From IMG/VR virus record IMGVR_UViG_3300028364_001588: a stretch of 64,000 nucleotides of DNA. One strand, given 5' to 3'. The stretch's first letter is position 1. Each line of letters starts with the position of its first letter. Positions 1,798-32,397 of the stretch are shown here, piece after piece. The notes below the pieces were generated by a model. The model ran no database searches, had not been told where the DNA came from, and saw only the letters and a program-made list of their open reading frames with translations. A program made the position numbers and the translations under genes. The DNA comes from a virus.

Positions 1798-3170
1798 TGA
1801 TAGAGAAAAAATCCATACAAGAAACAACAGGCAACGCTACAAACGTTGCTCAAAGTTTTTATCAAAACATATTCTTTACAACAAAGAATGGAGTCACTGT
1901 TCCTTCTGTTTTCGAAGTTCCACAATATACAACCGTTGGTGGTACGAAGGATTATTACATGCAAGACCCGCTTTCTATATTTACAAACCTTGTAAAGCCT
2001 TTTATTATATTTGACTTTAGCGAAAACACTGCAAGCTTCGGTCCTACTGTTAAAATAAAACATGATGTGTATCGTGTTAGTTGGGATTTGTTTAGCACAG
2101 TTCAAAGTGGCTTAAAATCTTATTCAAATGAAGCAGTTCAAACAGAAGATGTAACAACAGAAACAATTGAAGAGGTTGATAACATCACAGGAGAAATAAA
2201 AAAGAAAACAATTACAAGAACGCTGAGCTCAGACAGCAATGTGCTTAAGTCAAAAAGGAAAGTATCCAACGCAGAAGGAACAAAAGACGAAATGATAACG
2301 ACTCTTCCAACTGTCGCAGATATTCAAGCTCAACTTGATAATCCTATATTTTCAATAACAGCAAGTACAACTGGTATTACTACCAACATATATAACCTTC
2401 AAATAGAGCAGTTTACAAAAAAACTTGGAGAATATAAAACAGAGCTATTCAAAGATAGAGACCAATATATAATTGATACCAATTTTATATTTGAAATTGA
2501 CGTTACAGGCGGGTTAACTGATTACGAAACTGTTGACGAAGATGGAAATGTTTTTGTCAGCACTTATGAAAATCCAAAAACAGGACAAACTGAAAGTTCT
2601 GGAGCAACAATAGGCAAAGGAGAGTTTGAAGGTCTTAATTTTAAGACTGGAGATTATTTCTCATTTTTTGAAGTTCCTGACAAACCTATTCTCGAATACC
2701 CTACGCCAGAGGGTCAAATTGACACTTTTACTCCAGAGATATTTTGGACAAATGGAGAGGGGGCTGATGAATATTTAGTACAAGTTAACTACAACACAGG
2801 AGATACTGGATTTACAGGAACTGTATTTACTTACATTGTTCCTAAATTAGACGAATATAAAGAAGTTGCCATGAGCAAAACCAAAGATACAACTTCTGAA
2901 TTTTCTACAGACAAGACAATTAGAAAGTATCAACTTTCGCTCAAGACAAGTAAATGCTTATTATACAGGGTAGGAAACGTTAAGGTGCTTAAAAATTTAT
3001 TTGATGTTAAACAGAGTGTTGTAACTTTTTCAGATAATAAAACAATATGCACACAGGTTGAGCCGATTAAGACATTTGTTAAAACAGAAAGCGATAGCCC
3101 TTGGACTTCAGAAATAGCAGGGTTGCAATCAGCGCCTTCTATTGATGTGGAAAGTCCTCCGCACCGATAG
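1797..3170 (+). CDS. Putative virion structural protein, possibly C-terminally truncated
   Basis: 457-aa ORF coupled to the upstream gene (TAATG). FN3/Ig-like segment (PEIFWTNGEGADEYLVQVNY). Ends abruptly where an out-of-frame coding fragment begins. Confidence 0.6.
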   Translation: MIEKKSIQETTGNATNVAQSFYQNIFFTTKNGVTVPSVFEVPQYTTVGGTKDYYMQDPLSIFTNLVKPFIIFDFSENTASFGPTVKIKHDVYRVSWDLFSTVQSGLKSYSNEAVQTEDVTTETIEEVDNITGEIKKKTITRTLSSDSNVLKSKRKVSNAEGTKDEMITTLPTVADIQAQLDNPIFSITASTTGITTNIYNLQIEQFTKKLGEYKTELFKDRDQYIIDTNFIFEIDVTGGLTDYETVDEDGNVFVSTYENPKTGQTESSGATIGKGEFEGLNFKTGDYFSFFEVPDKPILEYPTPEGQIDTFTPEIFWTNGEGADEYLVQVNYNTGDTGFTGTVFTYIVPKLDEYKEVAMSKTKDTTSEFSTDKTIRKYQLSLKTSKCLLYRVGNVKVLKNLFDVKQSVVTFSDNKTICTQVEPIKTFVKTESDSPWTSEIAGLQSAPSIDVESPPHR

Positions 3171-3559
3171 AATTAGGTAGTTCTGTTGATTTTTCTGGTG
3201 GTACTTCTGGGGGCGTTATTTACTCTGGAGGGACCGACCTTTATGATATATTCTCTGGAGGAGTTAATACTAATTTTGCAAATACAAACCTAACTCTTAC
3301 TGGAGATAGATTACACACAATTGGGTCTAATAAACTTGTATTTGATGCTGGTTCTGCAAATGGAAGTATTTTATTTTCTGGAGATAGCGCTGTTGACAGT
3401 CAAATAAAACTCATGAACAACTTTTCAAACGAAATGTCGTCATTGGTAGTTATGATTGGGGGCGCATATTTAGATGGAACCGACTCTTCTGGAGTTAAAT
3501 CAAGCCAAATAAAAGCGAGTTCTGGGTCAGCTCCTGCAGAGCGTATGGTTGTGATTTAA
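3146..3559 (+). pseudogene. Fragment of a Gly/Ser-rich fibre-like gene lacking its own start
   Basis: Stop-free frame 3146-3559 reads APIELGSSVDFSGGTSGGVIYSGGTDLYDIFSGGVNTNFANTNLTLTGDRLHT..., with no start codon before this coding-like text. Not in the ORF track. Confidence 0.6.
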
Positions 3560-3564
3560 CTGGA

Positions 3565-4827
3565 GTGCTTGATTTATCTACGATAGCTATACATAATTCT
3601 CTTACATTATTTTTAAACCCAAACCTAACAGGAGTTACTCACTCTGCAACCACTCAATATATGGGTTTTTATGACCTTTCTGATTGTGATATAACAGGCA
3701 ATCACGATATAAGCATGTTTGCAGACTTAGGAGGAACATTTTCTTTAGATGGAAACTCAAACCTAACAGGGATAACGCACACAGGCTCAACAAGCAATTT
3801 CGGTAGCTATAACGTTAGCTCTTGTAATTTAACTGGAAATCATGATGTTAGCATGTTGTTAGGTCTGGGTGGAGACTTTAATGTTTCATCAAACCCTAAC
3901 CTAACAAGTATAACACACGCTGGTTCAACAAGTAATTTTGAAAAATATAGAATTAACTCTACTGGCATTGCGAATCTTGACTTGTCTATGATAACAGTTG
4001 GAGGGGGTACATTTGGTACTTTTTCTGCGAATAATTGCCCAAACCTAACAGCAATTACGCATTCTGCGTCAACAGAATCAATAAAAAGTTATAATGTTTA
4101 TTCTTGTGATTTAATAGGAAATCACGATATAAGCATGCTCTCTAATATGAGCGGAAGCCTTAGTTTTAATTCTAACCTAAATTTAACAAGCGTAACACAC
4201 CCTGCAATAAGCGAGTTAAACACTTATAACGGATATTCATGCGATATGATTGGAACACAAGATATGACCATGATAGATGAGCTTGGTTCATTCAATATGT
4301 ATGCAAATAGTAACTTAACAAGAATATTACACGCACCCTCAAGTAACCCTGGGGACTATACAGCTTGGGGATGCGACCTGCAGCCAGCTCATAATATGTC
4401 GATGCTATCTGGAAGGACTGATTATATAAGAGTTCATGACAACCCAAACTTAACAAGCATAGCGCTTGGGCCTTCTTCTGGCACCTTTAGGAATACAAAC
4501 ACGTCAAGTGCAACAAAAGCAATTAGTATGAATGATTGTGATTTAGGGTTTGTTGATTTTATGCCACTTTCTTCGGCAACGATGAATACTGGAGCAACAC
4601 ACAGAGCCTCAATAACACTTCAAAACAATGGCATGAATGAAGTGGAAGTGAATAGAACACTTGTATCGTTTGATGAAATGTCAACATTAAACCCTTCTGG
4701 CTGGTCTGGTGTAATATTAGACATAAGCGGAAGCAATCAGCCGCCAAATGGCTCAAGCGGAGGATATAATGGAACTGGGGCTACTATTAGTTTAATATCA
4801 AAAGGTTGGACAGTTACAACGTCTTAA
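3565..4827 (+). CDS. LRR/L-domain-like solenoid repeat protein (fibre/adhesin-like), N-terminally truncated
   Basis: About 6 repeats of ~47 aa (CDLTGNHDISML...F.V.SNPNLTSITH). The frame is open from 3499 and the repeat register (AYGCDLTGVLDLS) starts before the GTG, so the native start seems lost. Confidence 0.6.
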   Translation: MLDLSTIAIHNSLTLFLNPNLTGVTHSATTQYMGFYDLSDCDITGNHDISMFADLGGTFSLDGNSNLTGITHTGSTSNFGSYNVSSCNLTGNHDVSMLLGLGGDFNVSSNPNLTSITHAGSTSNFEKYRINSTGIANLDLSMITVGGGTFGTFSANNCPNLTAITHSASTESIKSYNVYSCDLIGNHDISMLSNMSGSLSFNSNLNLTSVTHPAISELNTYNGYSCDMIGTQDMTMIDELGSFNMYANSNLTRILHAPSSNPGDYTAWGCDLQPAHNMSMLSGRTDYIRVHDNPNLTSIALGPSSGTFRNTNTSSATKAISMNDCDLGFVDFMPLSSATMNTGATHRASITLQNNGMNEVEVNRTLVSFDEMSTLNPSGWSGVILDISGSNQPPNGSSGGYNGTGATISLISKGWTVTTS

Positions 4828-4829
4828 TT

Positions 4830-5039
4830 ATGGAAGTTACTCAAGAAAATATAAACGGAACTGTAATAAACAGAACGGATAGCGAAATGTCATGGAGACT
4901 AATTCACGATGGAAACAGGGTTATAGACTTGTTTGAATCGTCTGGAACCACTGTGACCATGTATGATATTTTCCTGGCATCAACCTTAGAAGAGTGTCAA
5001 GCTCAAATCTATTCCTTAGATTTAGACTATAACCCTTAA
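4830..5039 (+). CDS. Small hypothetical protein (fibre-associated?)
   Basis: ATG at 4830, 2 nt after the upstream stop; 69 aa. Confidence 0.55.
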   Translation: MEVTQENINGTVINRTDSEMSWRLIHDGNRVIDLFESSGTTVTMYDIFLASTLEECQAQIYSLDLDYNP

Positions 5040-5911
5040 AGACCTTGAGAAAGATTGAAGAACGTTTGCGCTCTATTAATATTGCTTCTCTCTTCTTTAA
5101 CATCAATGTTACCATCAGAAAACTGTTTCTTCCTTGTAACAAGATTGTATTGTCTATAAAGATTTCCATTGTCATCAAATATTGAGTAAACTCCAGTCTC
5201 AAGGTCTCTTGTTGAGTCTCCGTAAAGAACGTAGCTTAATGTTTTGATTGACTGGTCTACCATTTCAACTTCAACCATAACAGGGTCAAAGAAAGTGTTT
5301 GATATAAGTATTTGCTGACCTGATTTACCAAGGTCAGAACTAACAGTGTTGGTTATTAGACTTGCTTCATCTGGAGTAAGTGTAAGAAATAATTGATTTC
5401 CATTAGGGTCAATTACATAAGTAGTAGAACTTGCGTTTGTTGTGTTATTGTTTGGGTTAACACTTACAAGGTCAGAGCTTGTAATTATTCTATGAAAGTT
5501 TTTAATCTTAACACCATTATCATCAAAATACTCCATTTGGTATCCCACAAGACTTCCAGTGCTTTGAAACTGTAGCTTTGGTATGATTATACCTTTTTTA
5601 GAAATTTGTATCTCCTGGTCGTTATTTGTTATGACGAATGAACAGTCAACTATTTCTGTTTGAAATATTTTTGGCCTAATTAAAAGCAAGTAAAACCCAA
5701 GTTGGTTGAATATGCTGGCTGGAAGTCTTAATTTATATCCACCATCTCCACCAAGCATTTTTCTAAATTCATTATTAGTAACACTATTGTATATTGGTTG
5801 GAAACTTGTGTCACCAAGCGATTCTCTATTTGGAGAATAAGAATATAACACATCAACATCGTTAAAATCTGCGTCACTGAGCTTCACAGTACCATAAGTT
5901 CCTACAGCCAT
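5036..5911 (-). CDS. Putative baseplate/tail structural protein (MAVGTYGT...)
   Basis: 291-aa ORF, last gene of the minus-strand baseplate operon; its start overlaps the endonuclease stop. Confidence 0.6.
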   Translation of the reverse strand: MAVGTYGTVKLSDADFNDVDVLYSYSPNRESLGDTSFQPIYNSVTNNEFRKMLGGDGGYKLRLPASIFNQLGFYLLLIRPKIFQTEIVDCSFVITNNDQEIQISKKGIIIPKLQFQSTGSLVGYQMEYFDDNGVKIKNFHRIITSSDLVSVNPNNNTTNASSTTYVIDPNGNQLFLTLTPDEASLITNTVSSDLGKSGQQILISNTFFDPVMVEVEMVDQSIKTLSYVLYGDSTRDLETGVYSIFDDNGNLYRQYNLVTRKKQFSDGNIDVKEERSNINRAQTFFNLSQGL

Positions 5912-6837
5912 AGTTTTTCTTTTTTATATAAATAATCGGAAATAATTTTATTAACATTTTTTAAATCAAAATAAGGTATTCTCAAAAGGTTAATACCACT
6001 TTTTTTACAATACTCTGTTTTTAATATATCTCTCTGTTTCATTTCCTTAAACTTTATTTTTGCTATAGATTTATCAAAATATAACCTCCAAGGCTCATAG
6101 TGATATTCTCCATCGTATTCTATACATATATTATAATATTGTAAATAGAAATCAAATTTAAGGTGTCTATTTGTCTTAGCGTTCCTGCAATCATCAAAAA
6201 TCTTTTGCTTCTCAAAATCTACATTATTTTTCTTTAAAAATAAAGCCACTTTTCTCTCTCCTTTGGATTCAGAACACTTTTGACAACCAGAACCCATCAG
6301 ATGTATATATGGTTTTTGCTCAAACTCCCCGTGTATTGGACACATTATATTGATGGGCTTGTCATATCTTTCATAGGCAGTTTTCGAATAATCATATTTA
6401 TTATCATGCTTTTCTGATGCATCATCAATGAAGTCTTCTGTAGTCCTGCCGACTCCAGCGCATTTTGGACAACCATTTCCATTAAGGTGTTGATTTGGTT
6501 TCTGCGCAAAATCACCATGCTTAATACAACTAATAACAACTTTAATTTTATTTCCAATATATTTCACCTTTGAGTAGTTGTATCTATCTCCATGAACGTC
6601 CTTTGCTTTTTTAACAAACTCTTTAGTATTTCCGTTTTTATTTCCAGCGCAAATTGAGCAGCCATTTTTAGCTGATACATGTCCATTTGGACTTTGTTCA
6701 AATACACCATGGTCTACACATACAATTTTAATCTTCGTTGAGTTATTTTTGTAATTCACCAAAGAGTAATCATACTTATATCCATGGATGATTTTTGCTT
6801 TTTTAATAAATTCTTCTGTTGTTAGTTTTCTTGGCAT
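5902..6837 (-). mobile_element. Free-standing putative homing endonuclease: DUF723-type Zn-ribbon repeats plus Vsr/DUF559-like PD-(D/E)XK domain
   Basis: Three repeats of H.xxYDYSxxxY...IxCxxHGxFxQxPxxHxxGxGCxxC; C-terminal FDFYL...ICIEYDGEYHY...RDxxKxxYC...LLRIPY. Confidence 0.85.
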
Positions 6838-6866
6838 AAGCCTTTTATTATAAATACATAAGATTT

Positions 6867-6890
6867 TTAAAAATCAACATCAGCTAATTT
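6867..6890 (-). pseudogene. Stranded 5' remnant, part 2 (KLADVDF*), of the 5036-5911 gene
   Basis: AAA TTA GCT GAT GTT GAT TTT TAA matches KLSDADF (residues 10-16) of the intact gene. Confidence 0.7.
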
Positions 6891-6924
6891 TATATTGATT
6901 AAAAATATTTCCATATTTATTAAT

Positions 6925-7476
6925 ATGGACACTATCAGGCTTATAATTAGAGAAGAAATCCGCATCATATTAAACGAAGAACGTCAAGGTGGTGGCTTAA
7001 GTCAGTTTATTAAGAACTGGGGCGATTTTGTATTAGATATTTCTGATTATAGAGAACAAGATTTAGCACAGCTATATAAAGAGGGGGCCAATTCTCTAAG
7101 GTTTAATCTGGAACATAAAGAATTAATTTATCGTGGGATGTCAGTTAATGATGAATGGCTTAATCAATTTATGAAAAGTGATTCTATAAGGTTAGGTAAA
7201 TTCTGGTCTTTCGATAAAGTTGTTAGCAAAGATTTCATGCAAGCTCCAGATGTTTATGATGATGAATTTTCTAAGTTTAAAGGGAAAAATAAATTGTTTA
7301 TTATAGCTAAAGCTCCTGGGTATTTAAGTCATATTGATGTTGATGCTACGGTTGCTCATGGAATTGTCTCATCAGAAAGTGAATTAAGGCTATTAAAAGG
7401 CGCTCCACTTGACGTGGTTTCAATAAAGTTTAACGGCAAGGAGTTGAACTTCGAGAACAAGAATCTAACTTCTTAA
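6925..7476 (+). CDS. Putative R-S-E clade ADP-ribosyltransferase with N-terminal IRLIIREEI motif
   Basis: IYRGM (R), FWSFD (S) and ESELRL (ExE) in canonical order. ATG at 6925, 3 nt after TATTTATT. Confidence 0.6.
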   Translation: MDTIRLIIREEIRIILNEERQGGGLSQFIKNWGDFVLDISDYREQDLAQLYKEGANSLRFNLEHKELIYRGMSVNDEWLNQFMKSDSIRLGKFWSFDKVVSKDFMQAPDVYDDEFSKFKGKNKLFIIAKAPGYLSHIDVDATVAHGIVSSESELRLLKGAPLDVVSIKFNGKELNFENKNLTS

Positions 7477-7488
7477 TAAAAACACTTT

Positions 7489-7527
7489 ATCTGCTAATTT
7501 AACTGTTCCGTAAGTTCCTACTGCCAT
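7489..7527 (-). pseudogene. Stranded 5' remnant, part 1 (MAVGTYGTVKLAD), of the 5036-5911 gene
   Basis: 12 of 13 aa identical to the intact N-terminus, with many synonymous differences; retains a TATTTATA at 7543-7550. Confidence 0.92.
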
Positions 7528-7571
7528 AGTCTTTTTGTTTAATATAAATAATTCATAAAAAAAATAAAACC

Positions 7572-8402
7572 TTAAAGAGAAAACTCTATAAGTTCAAGGC
7601 CTCCATCTTCTTTGTATATGTCCAAATTTAGTTTTAAAGTTTCTCTCAAAGTAGAAAAATTAGATTCAAAAAATTCAAAATCAGTTTGTTTAGAGTTTAT
7701 TATTGTTTCATAAAGATAATTTGCTCCACCAAAATCCGTTATGCTGCCGTCTTTTAGTATTTGTTCTGCAAAAATTAAGAGCCTAAATGAATGCCAAATT
7801 TCCTTCACAGCCCTATATAAATCTCCATTTGAATTAAATTTGCTCTTGGCTATGTTCCAAAGGTCATCTGATTCGAATTTAACTTTGTTTATAAGTTTAT
7901 CACTATCTATGTCAACTGAAAAAGTCTTGTTGTCAATTATAATAAAATTTTCAGGATAGCTAAGAGATTCGATTTCACGCATTTCATGGTTGTCTAATTT
8001 GTTTTGAAAGTCTTCTTGAGAAAAAATGTGAACATCAAAATCGTTTCCATCTATATTTGTTTCTCTAAAAACGTTTCCACTAATATCAGTTGATATTGCT
8101 ATTAAATCCCAGTCAGAACCAACGCCATCAACACCATAAAGCCTTGAGCCTTTTACAGAAGCTAATTGTATTGATTCAATATTGACGCCTATGTTTTCAA
8201 ACACACTCTCAATATCAACAGGTAATTCAATCTTATCTGATGCAGATTTTAATTTAGAAACATTTAAAAAAACAGGGTTTATATCAATGTTTTTAACGAT
8301 TAGTTCTTGTTGTTTTTTGTAACCAATTTTAGTGTTTACGTTCTCATCTGTTTCGAGATTAATATCTACGAACCCTTGTAGTATAATATGTGTTCTTGCC
8401 AT
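7572..8402 (-). CDS. DNA polymerase beta-superfamily nucleotidyltransferase
   Basis: GSRLYG...SDWD motif, third acidic residue in DFDVH, helical C-terminus (WHSFRLLIFAEQI). Confidence 0.75.
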   Translation of the reverse strand: MARTHIILQGFVDINLETDENVNTKIGYKKQQELIVKNIDINPVFLNVSKLKSASDKIELPVDIESVFENIGVNIESIQLASVKGSRLYGVDGVGSDWDLIAISTDISGNVFRETNIDGNDFDVHIFSQEDFQNKLDNHEMREIESLSYPENFIIIDNKTFSVDIDSDKLINKVKFESDDLWNIAKSKFNSNGDLYRAVKEIWHSFRLLIFAEQILKDGSITDFGGANYLYETIINSKQTDFEFFESNFSTLRETLKLNLDIYKEDGGLELIEFSL

Positions 8403-8498
8403 TTTTATATTTATTTTACAATGTCTTATTTGCTACTGATATTTTAGCTTTTTTTTGATAAAACCTACTGCTCCATTAGATTTTAAAACTATAACTCA

Positions 8499-9140
8499 TC
8501 AATAATATCCGTAGCCGTAATTATCTCCTGTAGAATCATCTCCATTGTCTGGGATGAAATCATTCATCACTTCTGTTATATTTTCAAAATAAACCCTCGC
8601 TCTATCGGTTTGGCTATAGCTTCTTCTTATAAAAACAGGGATATAATAACTTGGTTCATATGTAAATGTGGTAAGCGCTGAAAATACTTTTAACTCTCGC
8701 TCTGTTCCGTTAATACTCAGAGGGATATGCTGAAGACCTTTTGATGGTGCTACACCGTTGTACTTAAAAGCTATAGTGTCGATTACAGTCATACCAGTTG
8801 TGCCAACAAGGCTGTTTTCTATAACTTCAGAAGGAGGAAACTGATTGTTCACAACACTTGAATTATAGTAATTATTAAACACATCTGACAATTTTTGGTC
8901 GCTATTGTAAATCTCTCCAAACTCAACAGTTGTTGTTGCTCCAGTTAAATAAGAATAAAAATCATTTATGATAACTAAGTTATCATTGTTATTTAAAAAA
9001 TTTCTAACATTAGAATAGTTAACAATACCGTTTCCAAGCCCTTGAATTTTATTCACCTGGTATCCATTCACATTTTGTAAAGTAGAATTAACTGTCGATG
9101 TTTCTCCAGTAAGTGTGATTAATATTTTGTGCTTTTGCAT
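8499..9140 (-). CDS. Hypothetical protein in baseplate operon
   Basis: 213-aa ORF, tightly packed in the structural operon. Confidence 0.6.
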   Translation of the reverse strand: MQKHKILITLTGETSTVNSTLQNVNGYQVNKIQGLGNGIVNYSNVRNFLNNNDNLVIINDFYSYLTGATTTVEFGEIYNSDQKLSDVFNNYYNSSVVNNQFPPSEVIENSLVGTTGMTVIDTIAFKYNGVAPSKGLQHIPLSINGTERELKVFSALTTFTYEPSYYIPVFIRRSYSQTDRARVYFENITEVMNDFIPDNGDDSTGDNYGYGYY

Positions 9141-29856: not shown

Positions 29857-30726
29857 ATGAAAACAAATAAGTTTATAGAAGAGTCGATTAAAATTCATGG
29901 AAATCGCTATAATTATAAAAACACAAAATACACAAACGCAAGAACTAAAATTAAAATAATTTGCCCAGAACACAATGAGTTTGAACAGTTGCCTGGAAAT
30001 CACAAAAGAGGTAATGGATGTCCTAAGTGTATTTATAACAAATTAACTAAAAAAGAAGTTTTAAAGCAATTTAAAAAAATACATGGAGATAAATATGATT
30101 ATTCTTTAATTGATTACAATGGAGATAATGTTAAAGTAAAAATAATTTGTTCAGAACATGGAGTATTTAAACAAGTTCCAGGAATACACAAATTAGGTAG
30201 TGGTTGCAAAAAATGCGCTGGACTTGAGAAATTAGATAATGAAAAAGTGGTGGAGCAATTTAAAGAAACACATGGAGATAAATATAATTATTCTTTAATT
30301 AACTATATTAATGCTCATACAAAAGTTAATATTATATGTCCAGAGCATGGAAGGTGGAGACAAACTCCAAATAATCATAAAAACGGAAATGGGTGTCCTA
30401 TATGTAAAGAATCTAAAGGAGAAAGAAAAATCAGAAATTTATTAAATGAAAATAAAGTCAATTTCATCTCGCAATATAAATTTAAAGATTGCAAAAATAT
30501 ATTGCAATTACCTTTCGATTTTTATTTACCAGAATATAATATATGCATTGAATACAATGGAATGCAACATTATAAACCAATTGAACACTTTGGGGGTAGA
30601 CTTGGTTTCAAAAAAAGAATTATTAATGATAATATAAAAAAAGGATATTGTGAAAAAAACAATATCCTTTTAATAACTATTAACTACAACGAAGATGTAG
30701 AGAAAAAACTTAATCTAAAGTGGTAA
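29857..30726 (+). mobile_element. Free-standing putative homing endonuclease: DUF723 repeats plus Vsr/DUF559-like domain
   Basis: Same architecture as 5902-6837; LPFDFYLPEYNICIEYNGMQHY. Confidence 0.85.
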
Positions 30727-32335
30727 AACACCCTCGTATAAAGTGTATCTGCTGGGCTTTTCCATCTGAGTGAATAATTGAGTGTGATTGCAACCACGGG
30801 CTTGCTCCAATATTATATCCAACTCTAAGAATTGTAGAAGTTCCTACTTGAATTACTCCATCCATACGGCCTGGAGAGTGTGAATGTCCAATAATCATTT
30901 TTGTACTCAACTTTCTAAACTGAACAATTGACCCACGACTACCTGAAGCTCCGATGTCTCCATGTTGTCCAACTTCCCATTCATGAATTCTATGAGTGTG
31001 GCTTCTGCCCAGTGTAATGAAATTAGGAAACTTTTCGTTAATCAAATAAGGAATAACTCCATCTGGAGCATCTTCCCCAAGCAACAAAGCCGCATAGTTC
31101 ATGTAACAAAGAGAGTTTTTCATTGTTGACTCTTTTCTCCAATCAACATCTCTAAGCCATCTGTCAAGGAAATCATCATGATTACTTCTAACTATGACTG
31201 TCTTATATTCTCTGAATGCCTCAAGGCCATCAAGCATAAAATCAATCTCTTTTTTAAGGTCGTTCTTTCCAGAGATTTCCTTTTTGTATTGAGCAAACGC
31301 ATCCTTTCTGTCGTGATGACTAATAGAGTGTCCGTCAAAAACATCATGAAGAACTACCTCTTTAGGCTTCAGCTTTTTAAACAAAACATTTAAAGTTGTA
31401 TTCATTACATCTTTATCTGTTTCGCCAAAGTGAATATCCCCAAGAATAGCGCCATCAATAGACTTATTTCTCTTTATAACTGTTTTACCAATCAACTCTT
31501 CTCCTTGAAATGTTAGGCCAGGTATTAAATCAACCTCTTCATAACCACCATCAAAAGACACATTATAATAAAGGTCGTTAAAATTACCATCTTCCGTTGC
31601 AGTGACTTGCCTTGTGTAAAAAACTTCTTCATCTTTAATCTCAACAACAACAAAACCAAGGGTGTGGTGAAACTCTCCTTTCTTTCCTGCTTTTGAGTCT
31701 GTATAATTTTCTAAAGTTACAGCTCCAGTTGTCATCATCATCTTTGGTGCTGTACCTTCTAATGCAGAAACCATTTTCATTTGCATCTTAGGGTGTCCAA
31801 ATATAGATGATTCTGGTCCAGAAAAACCTTCCAATGCTGTCATTGGGTTTGTGGCTGTAGGAGAAATTTTGACATCACCACAAACAATCAATCGCTTGTG
31901 AGCATTTTGTCTTGCGGCAAATAAATAAGGCTCTACTCTTGAGTGCCATGATTCAAAATCTTTATCATCAAATACAGATGTTGGATTTTTGTATCTACCA
32001 GCTATTATATGAACTTCTGCGTTAATCTCTTTTGCATAAGCTTCGATATTTCTAAGAAACACTTCGTGTACTGGAGTGTTGTTTTGTGCCCATGTAAATA
32101 TGAATCTCTTAGATTTTTTGCTAATCTTTTTCTTTTTAGCTTTTTTGAACTGGGGTGAATCCTCAGTAGCAGTTTTTTTAATTCCAAGCTTTACAAGCCA
32201 GTTTCGAGTTGTTTTTTCGCCTTTTCCGAAAAATTGCATTAACTCACTTATCCTTTCGTCATAAGCTAAATTGGATGAATAATAAATCTCCTTCGCATGA
32301 AGAATATCATCCTCTGTTAGTTTTTTGAATTTCAT
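30710..32335 (-). CDS. T5 A1-like protein (HTH plus calcineurin-like metallophosphoesterase/nuclease)
   Basis: TWAQNNTPVH, GDIH, HDVFDG, SNHD, HGD, GHSHSP. Start reassigned to ATG 32335 (MKFKK). Confidence 0.75.
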   Translation of the reverse strand: MKFKKLTEDDILHAKEIYYSSNLAYDERISELMQFFGKGEKTTRNWLVKLGIKKTATEDSPQFKKAKKKKISKKSKRFIFTWAQNNTPVHEVFLRNIEAYAKEINAEVHIIAGRYKNPTSVFDDKDFESWHSRVEPYLFAARQNAHKRLIVCGDVKISPTATNPMTALEGFSGPESSIFGHPKMQMKMVSALEGTAPKMMMTTGAVTLENYTDSKAGKKGEFHHTLGFVVVEIKDEEVFYTRQVTATEDGNFNDLYYNVSFDGGYEEVDLIPGLTFQGEELIGKTVIKRNKSIDGAILGDIHFGETDKDVMNTTLNVLFKKLKPKEVVLHDVFDGHSISHHDRKDAFAQYKKEISGKNDLKKEIDFMLDGLEAFREYKTVIVRSNHDDFLDRWLRDVDWRKESTMKNSLCYMNYAALLLGEDAPDGVIPYLINEKFPNFITLGRSHTHRIHEWEVGQHGDIGASGSRGSIVQFRKLSTKMIIGHSHSPGRMDGVIQVGTSTILRVGYNIGASPWLQSHSIIHSDGKAQQIHFIRGCFTTLD

Positions 32336-32365
32336 AAATTGTTGTCTTATTATTTCTTCTAAGTG

Positions 32366-32397
32366 CAAATTAAAGAAAAAAAAGGCAACCAAACAAA
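32366..32397 (-). promoter_or_regulatory. Near-consensus Bacteroidota promoter (TTTG-N20-TTAATTTG)
   Basis: Directly upstream of the A1-like gene; one mismatch in the -7 box. Confidence 0.45.

Follow-up and report, generated by a model that had tools for sequence, protein, structure and literature searches.

How can the gene of a presumed DNA-cutting enzyme occupy the very beginning of a conserved gene and leave that gene complete? The question is raised by a locus in the window, as we call the whole stretch of 64,000 nucleotides (nt) analysed here, which is a portion of a 101.5-kb virus record (IMG/VR, IMGVR_UViG_3300028364_001588, estimated to be 31% complete) and probably stems from a very large phage, because the contigs of its relatives reach 494 kb. 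At this locus the gene of a putative homing endonuclease lies between a stranded copy of the start of a gene, hereafter the stub, and the complete, live gene (the target gene), which possesses a start of its own. The comparisons reported below, all of them made on sequences, render it likely that the locus is an intron-less homing cassette carrying a rescue copy of the gene start that it destroys. Coordinates refer to the minus strand of the window unless marked (+) and are collected in Table 1.

The two gene starts encode nearly the same peptide in a different spelling. The live start (5911-5873) and the stub (7527-7489) agree in 12 of 13 residues, A12S being the sole change, just as an earlier reading of the bare letters (the sequence-only reading) had stated, and they differ at 12 of 39 bases, spread over 9 of the 13 codons. 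The stub is in two pieces, stub 1 and stub 2; when these are joined and set against the live copy, 22 of 30 bases are identical in the upstream 30 nt, 22 of 27 in codons 1-9 and 12 of 21 in codons 10-16. The spelling of stub 1 matches three endonuclease-free relatives (L001, L085 and L004) at 25 of 27 bases in codons 1-9, and over codons 10-16 the stub shares 16-20 of 21 bases with alleles lacking the endonuclease, against 11-13 for the live copy, which is there closest to other endonuclease-carrying alleles. The endonuclease-free relatives thus bear out the proposal that the remnant is the displaced original 5' end and the live start a re-spelled replacement. The description of the latter as recoded needs qualification, in that the start is indeed re-spelled but the divergence is concentrated in codons 10-16 and is partly non-synonymous (A12S, V14A). 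Similarly, the continuation of the remnant at 6890-6867 was placed correctly, stop codon included, but the 13 nt said to separate it from the endonuclease's TATTTATA (6856-6849) contain that stop: the motif begins 13 nt past codon 16 and 10 nt past the stop. Taken alone, the 21-nt piece in stub 2 is weakly above chance, 109 of 2000 shuffles reaching its score; it is solid because it recurs at the same place in 14 other loci. L126, assembled independently from a different sample and 90% identical at the nt level, shows this architecture unchanged, with both stub pieces and the same gene of 183 amino acids (aa) between them, so that the arrangement must be regarded as real and inherited and not as an assembly artefact.

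The empty counterpart of the locus is well represented. Among 46 target-gene loci drawn from viral and metagenome collections, 30 are non-carriers in which gene order is conserved and a single copy of the target gene, spelled like the stub, stands exactly at the stub's position, directly preceded by a T-run, TATTTATA and a 15-nt spacer. Homologues of the 276-aa gene that lies upstream of the stub in the window stand before the intact target gene in the endonuclease-free L001, L002 and L085, and this gene is a marker of the target gene's native left context. The remaining 16 loci are carriers (the window, L126, L006, L118, L092, L090, L014, L117 and L133-L140), whose homologous endonucleases, of 60-93% aa identity, stand directly before the target gene. 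In a tree that omits the first 20 residues and covers 8 carriers together with 30 non-carriers, the carriers are scattered, and well-supported branches force at least four gains or losses; among syntenic genomes, the presence and absence of the endonuclease is patchy on the target-gene tree.

What the carriers share is a fixed remnant in changing surroundings. A native-type segment of about codons 10-16 precedes the endonuclease's promoter-like motif in 15 of the 15 carriers with upstream DNA (L092 has none), the retained segment being codons 12-18 in the GC-richer L014 and L117, and the gap from it to the endonuclease's TATTTATA is 10-15 nt where counted (window, L006, L118 and L090). The junction follows codon 16 (TTT, then non-gene sequence) in all 13 AT-rich carriers with upstream DNA, where the sequence-only reading had put it, at codons 16-17; it lies roughly two codons later, at about codon 18, in L014 and L117. 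Left of this half-site stand the recipient's codons 1-13 plus the 183-aa gene in the window and L126, two unrelated small genes in L137, and the stop codon of a 634-aa gene in L006 and L118; the native promoter is fused to the half-site in two distinct ways (L090 and L133-135; L136 and L139), and codons 6-16 or 6-18 are retained in L014, L117 and L140. Every carrier with upstream DNA has thus either lost the start codon or had it separated off, by at least four independent routes, and none is without the half-site. In L138 (991-1461) an upstream open reading frame (ORF) of 146 aa reads into the codon 10-16 stub and ends on its stop, the scar having become the C-terminus of another gene.

The divergence of the live copy is focal as well. 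Over codons 10-16 the live gene of the window has 43-67% nt identity to the other alleles, as compared with 75-90% in most other segments of the gene, the exception being the carrier L090 (76%). Nine pairings of a carrier and its nearest non-carrier show 6-10 differences in the 21 bases of codons 10-16, which puts this segment in the top 2-19% of windows along the gene; in five pairs of non-carriers there are 1-3 differences, among the least divergent windows. All 16 carriers have changes in codons 10-13, which are conserved between the members of the non-carrier pairs, and the motif AAATTRGCN (codons 10-12) is missing in 15 of 16 carriers versus 14 of 30 non-carriers (Fisher p = 0.0016, uncorrected for phylogeny). 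The predicted target is, then, intact in empty alleles and altered in carrier alleles. At residue 11 the carriers either keep Leu in a different codon or have Thr, Met, Ser, Cys or Ala, a diversity of solutions that is consistent with one DNA sequence having been selected against repeatedly rather than with one protein having been favoured. The N-terminal tail may tolerate such substitutions, since residues 1-13 are modelled with low confidence by AlphaFold. Codons 15-20 are near-invariant across all alleles, and an intact native 32-mer is absent from the window even with up to 3 mismatches allowed, which suggests a recognition site spanning roughly codons 10-20. The junction should not be mistaken for the cut site: changes of the resistance type cluster in codons 10-13 and not in codons 16-17, and the scars would place the break end only at or 3' of codons 13-16, or of codon 18 in the GC-richer clade.

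From this anatomy we infer cleavage, the position of the cut, a route of repair and a role for the promoter-like motifs. The cassette would consist, in the order of the minus strand, of an old left half-site of 21 base pairs (bp; native codons 10-16), TATTTATA and the endonuclease gene, a second TATTTATA in the 3' end of that gene, and replacement codons 1-16 in frame with the gene body, codons 10-13 of the replacement being re-spelled and presumably resistant to cleavage. In genomes without the cassette, the endonuclease would recognise the native sequence around codons 10-20. Neither copy within a carrier would offer the full site, the stub holding the native left half and ending at codon 16, and the live copy holding the native right half behind an altered left half. 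After the cut, repair would copy the cassette from a co-infecting donor, the gene body serving as the right-hand homology. Three non-carriers look like footprints of endonuclease loss through recombination between stub and live repeat, or of conversion without transfer: L099 (1-160) has a carrier-type spacer and an altered core, L089 (2150-2260) combines a native spacer with carrier-type codons, and L001 (5950-6060) switches from native to carrier-like spelling between codons 12 and 13.

Several observations weigh against the cassette reading. The carrier L138 retains the AAATTAGC core, its change being at codon 13, and altered cores also occur in the non-carriers L089, L091 and L099, which a past loss of the endonuclease would explain. 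A test of phylogenetically independent pairs yielded four starred pairs, too few for significance, with none in the opposite direction. A contiguous, intact stub of codons 1-16, as predicted just after a two-sided invasion, was not found among the loci. Finally, the nuclease domain lacks a secure family assignment.

As for the enzyme itself, three zinc-finger repeats of the DUF723/DUF4379/CapR type (four in some homologues) precede a putative C-terminal nuclease domain with the motifs S..E, DFY, IEYDG..H and D..K, the family alignment showing presumed catalytic residues to be conserved. Zinc fingers of this type have been described as the modules by which phage homing endonucleases bind DNA (PMC10448857). 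The protein also matches phrog_681, and its family comprises 4,695 proteins at E <= 1e-60, some of which bear the JGI name 'very-short-patch-repair endonuclease'. The HNH label of phrog_559 finds no support in Pfam, whose HNH models are matched neither by the window protein (E up to 0.1) nor by 16 family members (E up to 0.01), and neither LAGLIDADG nor GIY-YIG is among the Pfam matches listed for these proteins. Matches to DUF2726 and DUF5889 are below threshold. A Vsr/PD-(D/E)XK-like fold is the likely candidate; sequence and profile searches returned no relative among solved structures. The gene forms an ORF by itself, from start to stop codon, and lies within neither a self-splicing intron nor an intein, and a search of 4800-8600 returned no intron family at E up to 1. 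Elsewhere in the record, beyond the window, a third and fragmentary match to the nuclease domain was noticed (G000:C1:10177-10422, 36% identity over residues 199-287).

Why the stub should be split in two is a separate question, for which a history of two nested scars is in our judgement a somewhat better than even explanation. Homology between the window and L137 starts at 6894, with TATA and then codon 10, and to the left of it lie unrelated genes; codon 10, or a point close to it, is also where at least four other left contexts stop. A boundary that recurs in unrelated contexts is better understood as the left end of the travelling cassette than as the insertion site of the 183-aa gene, and the TATA before stub 2 is probably a promoter vestige. 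The donor cassette, its stub by then reduced to codons 10-16 and the 183-aa gene lying to its left, would have invaded a native allele; the right side would have been repaired through gene-body homology, and the left break end, carrying the recipient's promoter and codons 1-13, would have been joined without homology beyond the 183-aa gene, giving stub 1, the donor's older stub being carried along as stub 2. One-sided, illegitimate repair of double-strand breaks is documented for T4 intron homing, according to PMC2988022, which cites Parker et al. 1999. Stub 1 matches the window's own closest non-carrier relatives, and under the nested history the '12-bp direct repeat' would be the overlap of the two scars.

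That repeat can be read in another way, namely as the 12-bp target duplication of a small mobile element, the 183-aa gene, inserted into a contiguous stub of codons 1-16 and leaving codons 10-13 twice. Codons 10-13 do flank the insert on both sides with 11 of 12 bases identical, and homologues of the 183-aa gene are found in unrelated phage contexts, once as a tandem pair beside a GIY-YIG fragment. However, one base distinguishes the two copies, in L126 as in the window, TATA and not codon 9 precedes stub 2, unrelated genes meet the same TATA-plus-codon-10 boundary in L137 and at least four further contexts end near codon 10, and the 183-aa gene has no transposase or nuclease signature. On these grounds we regard the insertion as unlikely.

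Of comparable, low probability is the proposal that the half-site is an operator that the endonuclease binds without cutting, thereby autoregulating its own promoter, a notion that is compatible with the homing cassette. It has a precedent in I-TevI, which represses its own late promoter through a homing-site-like operator (PMC2988022), and it would account for the fact that the start and the first 5-9 codons have been removed in at least four ways with the native-type segment kept in 15 of 15 carriers that have upstream DNA, where counted 10-15 nt ahead of the endonuclease's TATTTATA. Yet microhomology alone explains some of the boundaries (TTAAA in the spacer and in codons 9-10 of L136 and L139), a conservation test would need more than 21 AT-rich bases, and retention could equally mean use as a homology arm beside the break.

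Far less probable is a history in which a tandem duplication of the promoter and 16 codons came first, the endonuclease landed between the copies later, and the spelling differences are drift. Direct repeats around an insert can arise in this manner, and overall divergence among the relatives is high (14-25% of bases); nevertheless, none of the 30 relatives has the duplication without the endonuclease, the divergence is focal to codons 10-16 and limited to carriers in the pair comparisons, the live 5' end groups with those of carriers and the stub with the window's non-carrier relatives, and the same pattern is seen at other genes with this endonuclease family. An assembly chimera, conceivable in a metagenome assembly of such estimated completeness, or a stub that is the start of a deleted paralogue, which would have undone the displaced-start proposal, can be set aside almost entirely, given that the architecture is also found in L126 (independent sample and assembler) with variants in 14 further contigs, that non-carriers have one copy exactly at the stub position, and that the target gene is single-copy in the 101.5-kb record.

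A gene start that is replaced must also be expressed. The motif TATTTATA occurs 27 times in the window versus 7.65 expected, and 14 of these stand 3-29 nt ahead of an ORF of at least 50 aa; being enriched and often just upstream of ORFs, it is plausibly a phage promoter element. A scan for sigma-70-type promoters gave chance-level results. Since the duplication includes the promoter region, the live gene, with its own TATTTATA at 5934-5927 and the native 15-nt spacing, need not rely on the endonuclease transcript, and the claim that it is now expressed through that transcript is not required by the data. The endonuclease stop and the first codons of the live gene overlap by 10 nt, and no intrinsic terminator was found in a scan, so that read-through from one gene to the other is possible. 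The native motif at 7550 points into the 3' end of the opposite-strand 183-aa gene; predicted transcription is convergent there, and antisense effects on that gene are possible as a consequence.

Table 1. Features of the locus in window coordinates, listed in the direction of the minus strand.
Feature	Position	Strand	Basis
276-aa nucleotidyltransferase-like gene, upstream neighbour	7572..8402	-	phrog_388, E 2.7e-8
Native promoter-like TATTTATA of the target gene, now ahead of the stub only	7543..7550	-	Motif, T-run and 15-nt spacer as in endonuclease-free relatives
Stub 1, proposed young scar: native codons 1-13 (7527-7489), 7 foreign codons, stop; 20-codon dead ORF, identical in L126	7465..7527	-	
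12-nt filler between the stop of the 183-aa gene and stub 1	7477-7488		
183-aa gene between both scars, opposite strand, proposed cargo	6925..7476	+	ORF list
TATA, probable promoter vestige, ahead of stub 2	6894-6891	-	
Stub 2, proposed old scar and travelling half target site: native-type codons 10-16 plus TAA	6867..6890	-	Found in 14 other loci, likewise ahead of the endonuclease's promoter-like motif
Promoter-like TATTTATA of the endonuclease gene, ATG 11 nt downstream	6849..6856	-	Motif enrichment and position counts
Free-standing putative homing endonuclease gene, 311 aa	5902..6837	-	phrog_559 E 1.8e-73; phrog_9084 'homing endonuclease' E 2.7e-24; Pfam DUF723, DUF4379
Copy of the target's promoter-like TATTTATA within the 3' end of the endonuclease gene, 15 nt (native spacing) before the live ATG	5927..5934	-	
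Replacement codons 1-16 of the live gene; resistance-type core = codons 10-13 (5884-5873)	5864..5911	-	Most similar to the alleles of other carriers
Live target gene, 291 aa, conserved	5036..5911	-	82-94% aa identity to close relatives

Less can be said about the genes on either side of the endonuclease. That the target belongs to a baseplate operon, as the sequence-only reading had it, could not be confirmed: the gene has no match in Pfam, PHROGs or NCBIfam, its neighbours have none in Pfam and PHROGs, and the AlphaFold model of the target, whose mean predicted local distance difference test (pLDDT) score is 62.6, finds only weak or generic beta-barrel matches (best E 0.02 with Foldseek, best Z 6.6 with VIA-align) and no clear fold match. 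Phage GenBank records hold no relative of the target gene, their DNA matches being confined to the endonuclease gene, and a search for stubs by DNA pattern in viral contigs returned the known L006 contig and four unrelated coding coincidences only. The slot directly upstream of the target is hypervariable, being occupied by the 276-aa nucleotidyltransferase-like gene here, by a 622-aa fusion in L003, by remnants of 74-105 aa in L004 and L007, and by an unrelated gene of 604-634 aa in L006 and L014. On the other side, an endonuclease of the family lies immediately downstream of the target in L023, L027 and L028 (about 2046-4044) and in L135 (4601-5530), the last of which has endonucleases of the family on both sides; the target's 3' end may therefore be a second homing site.

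The 183-aa gene has four homologues in 5.8 billion proteins, in unrelated contexts elsewhere, and a CCATATTTATTA box 2 nt before its ATG that is conserved here and in L119/L121. Searches of Pfam, PHROGs and further family collections gave no match and no transposase or nuclease signature. Its assignment as an R-S-E ADP-ribosyltransferase was considered and dropped, the resemblance of YRG, WSF and an invariant E-x-E being at motif level only and no family being matched. The fold prediction was unsuccessful (pLDDT 34), and the atlas look-alikes are viral clusters without names.

The target gene is not the only one to be flanked in this way. A comparison of the translated flanks of 64 family loci, with a null of mismatched pairs (95th percentile 36, maximum 47), revealed duplicated gene ends around family endonucleases at no fewer than four other sites. 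In L037 (2895-4000, score 69), the first 29 residues of a methyltransferase-like gene with an NPPY motif recur in a second, re-spelled copy, and the stub forms an ORF of 30 codons that stops just before the endonuclease start, which makes it an independent N-terminal case. The others are L078 (score 57), positions 29857-30726 of the window (46, at the null maximum) and L062/L063 (45, at the null maximum), and in these three the duplicated end is the C-terminus of an opposite-strand gene. At 29857-30726 a second endonuclease of the family (289 aa, 44% identical to the 311-aa enzyme) has a displaced C-terminal stub on one side and, on the other, the working C-terminus of a 560-aa gene on the opposite strand (30710-32392). 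In all five sites, the endonuclease gene has the stub on its promoter side and the working copy beyond its 3' end. L052, which also scored high in the flank scan, was discarded as two paralogous long ORFs with no stub.

If these cases are read together, they raise a wider and more tentative idea, which we put forward as conceivable but do not hold to be probable: that the endonuclease family habitually spreads as a natural 'home-and-rescue' drive with a functional half-site, successive invasions stacking scars and cargo. Such a drive may enter at the first or last codons of conserved phage genes and bring a resistant gene end with it, may need to carry a replacement promoter as well when its target is N-terminal, and may use the 21-bp half-site as a homology arm beside the break or as an autoregulation operator and not leave it as a passive scar. 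Were this true, one-sided invasions would drag neighbours such as the 183-aa gene into structural operons, providing a route for cargo between phages.

These findings bear first of all on how genes of this kind can live in coding DNA. According to the usual view, an endonuclease that enters a coding region needs an intron or intein, or else splits the gene into two working pieces; the present locus would represent a third solution in phage, a resistant spare copy of the gene end, documented at one site by 16 carrier loci and 30 empty relatives. From the comparison one can predict the target (about codons 10-20) as well as a series of alleles with natural resistance, and it suggests how unrelated genes enter conserved phage operons. 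For annotation, it implies that short duplicated gene starts or ends next to endonuclease genes are to be regarded as scars and not as genes or assembly errors.

A comparable layout has been reached by design. Engineered 'home-and-rescue' or cleave-and-rescue drives target an essential gene and carry a re-coded, cleavage-resistant rescue of the part that they disrupt; they are CRISPR-based and made for diploid animals, whereas the phage cassette is natural, is guided by protein and is proposed to spread between co-infecting phage genomes. The locus may be viewed as a natural experiment on a drive design at which gene-drive engineers arrived independently.

Among phages, functional parallels to the proposed cassette are the free-standing endonucleases of T4-like phages (SegB-G and MobE, 'intronless homing'), which are intergenic, have their own late-type promoters, sometimes overlap their neighbours, and cut the neighbouring conserved gene in endonuclease-free phages, polymorphisms protecting the carrier; flanking markers are co-converted and the distribution is patchy (PMC2988022, PMC2790892). 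They differ in that entry into a coding region splits the gene into two polypeptides (mobE in Aeh1 nrdA, mobA in gene 60) without any rebuilding. Similar in domain composition are the CapR/DUF723-repeat endonucleases of the Vibrio phage ICP1, which have tandem zinc-finger repeats joined to a nuclease domain, as the present protein is predicted to have, and whose genes lie at boundaries of inter-phage exchange, but which have a T5orf172 (GIY-YIG-related) nuclease in place of the IEYDG..H domain found here, and for which replacement of a gene end is not described (PMC10448857). In the open-access literature we found no phage report, T4-type included, of a duplicated, re-spelled gene end or a left-behind stub beside a homing endonuclease.

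The closest match in layout comes from fungal mitochondria, where mORFs form 'gene hybrids' in atp6 of Allomyces macrogynus, atp6, atp9, cox2 and nad3 of Glomus, atp9 of Rhizopus and cox2 of Mortierella (PMC3630166). There too an endonuclease ORF sits inside the end of a gene, the gene body is joined in frame to a foreign, divergent version of that end, and the native end is left as a stub that is not expressed but still resembles close relatives, many of the differences being synonymous; in the window, correspondingly, the duplicated end flanks the ORF, the displaced copy resembles relatives and the in-frame copy is divergent. The two systems nonetheless differ in polarity, in enzyme and in host. 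The fungal elements replace C-termini, with the replacement before the ORF and the stub after it, and encode LAGLIDADG or GIY-YIG enzymes in organelles, whereas here it is the N-terminus of a gene of a large phage that is replaced, by a zinc-finger-repeat, probably PD-(D/E)XK-like protein, the stub lying on the promoter side of the endonuclease gene in all five phage sites examined. Because the N-terminus is replaced, a promoter-like motif and a start codon must be carried too. With a different nuclease, a replaced N-terminus and promoter, and a phage host, the locus would work like an mORF hybrid without being a member of the fungal families. A layout of drive plus rescue is thus already known for gene ends in fungal mitochondria, and what appears to be new is its N-terminal version in a phage.

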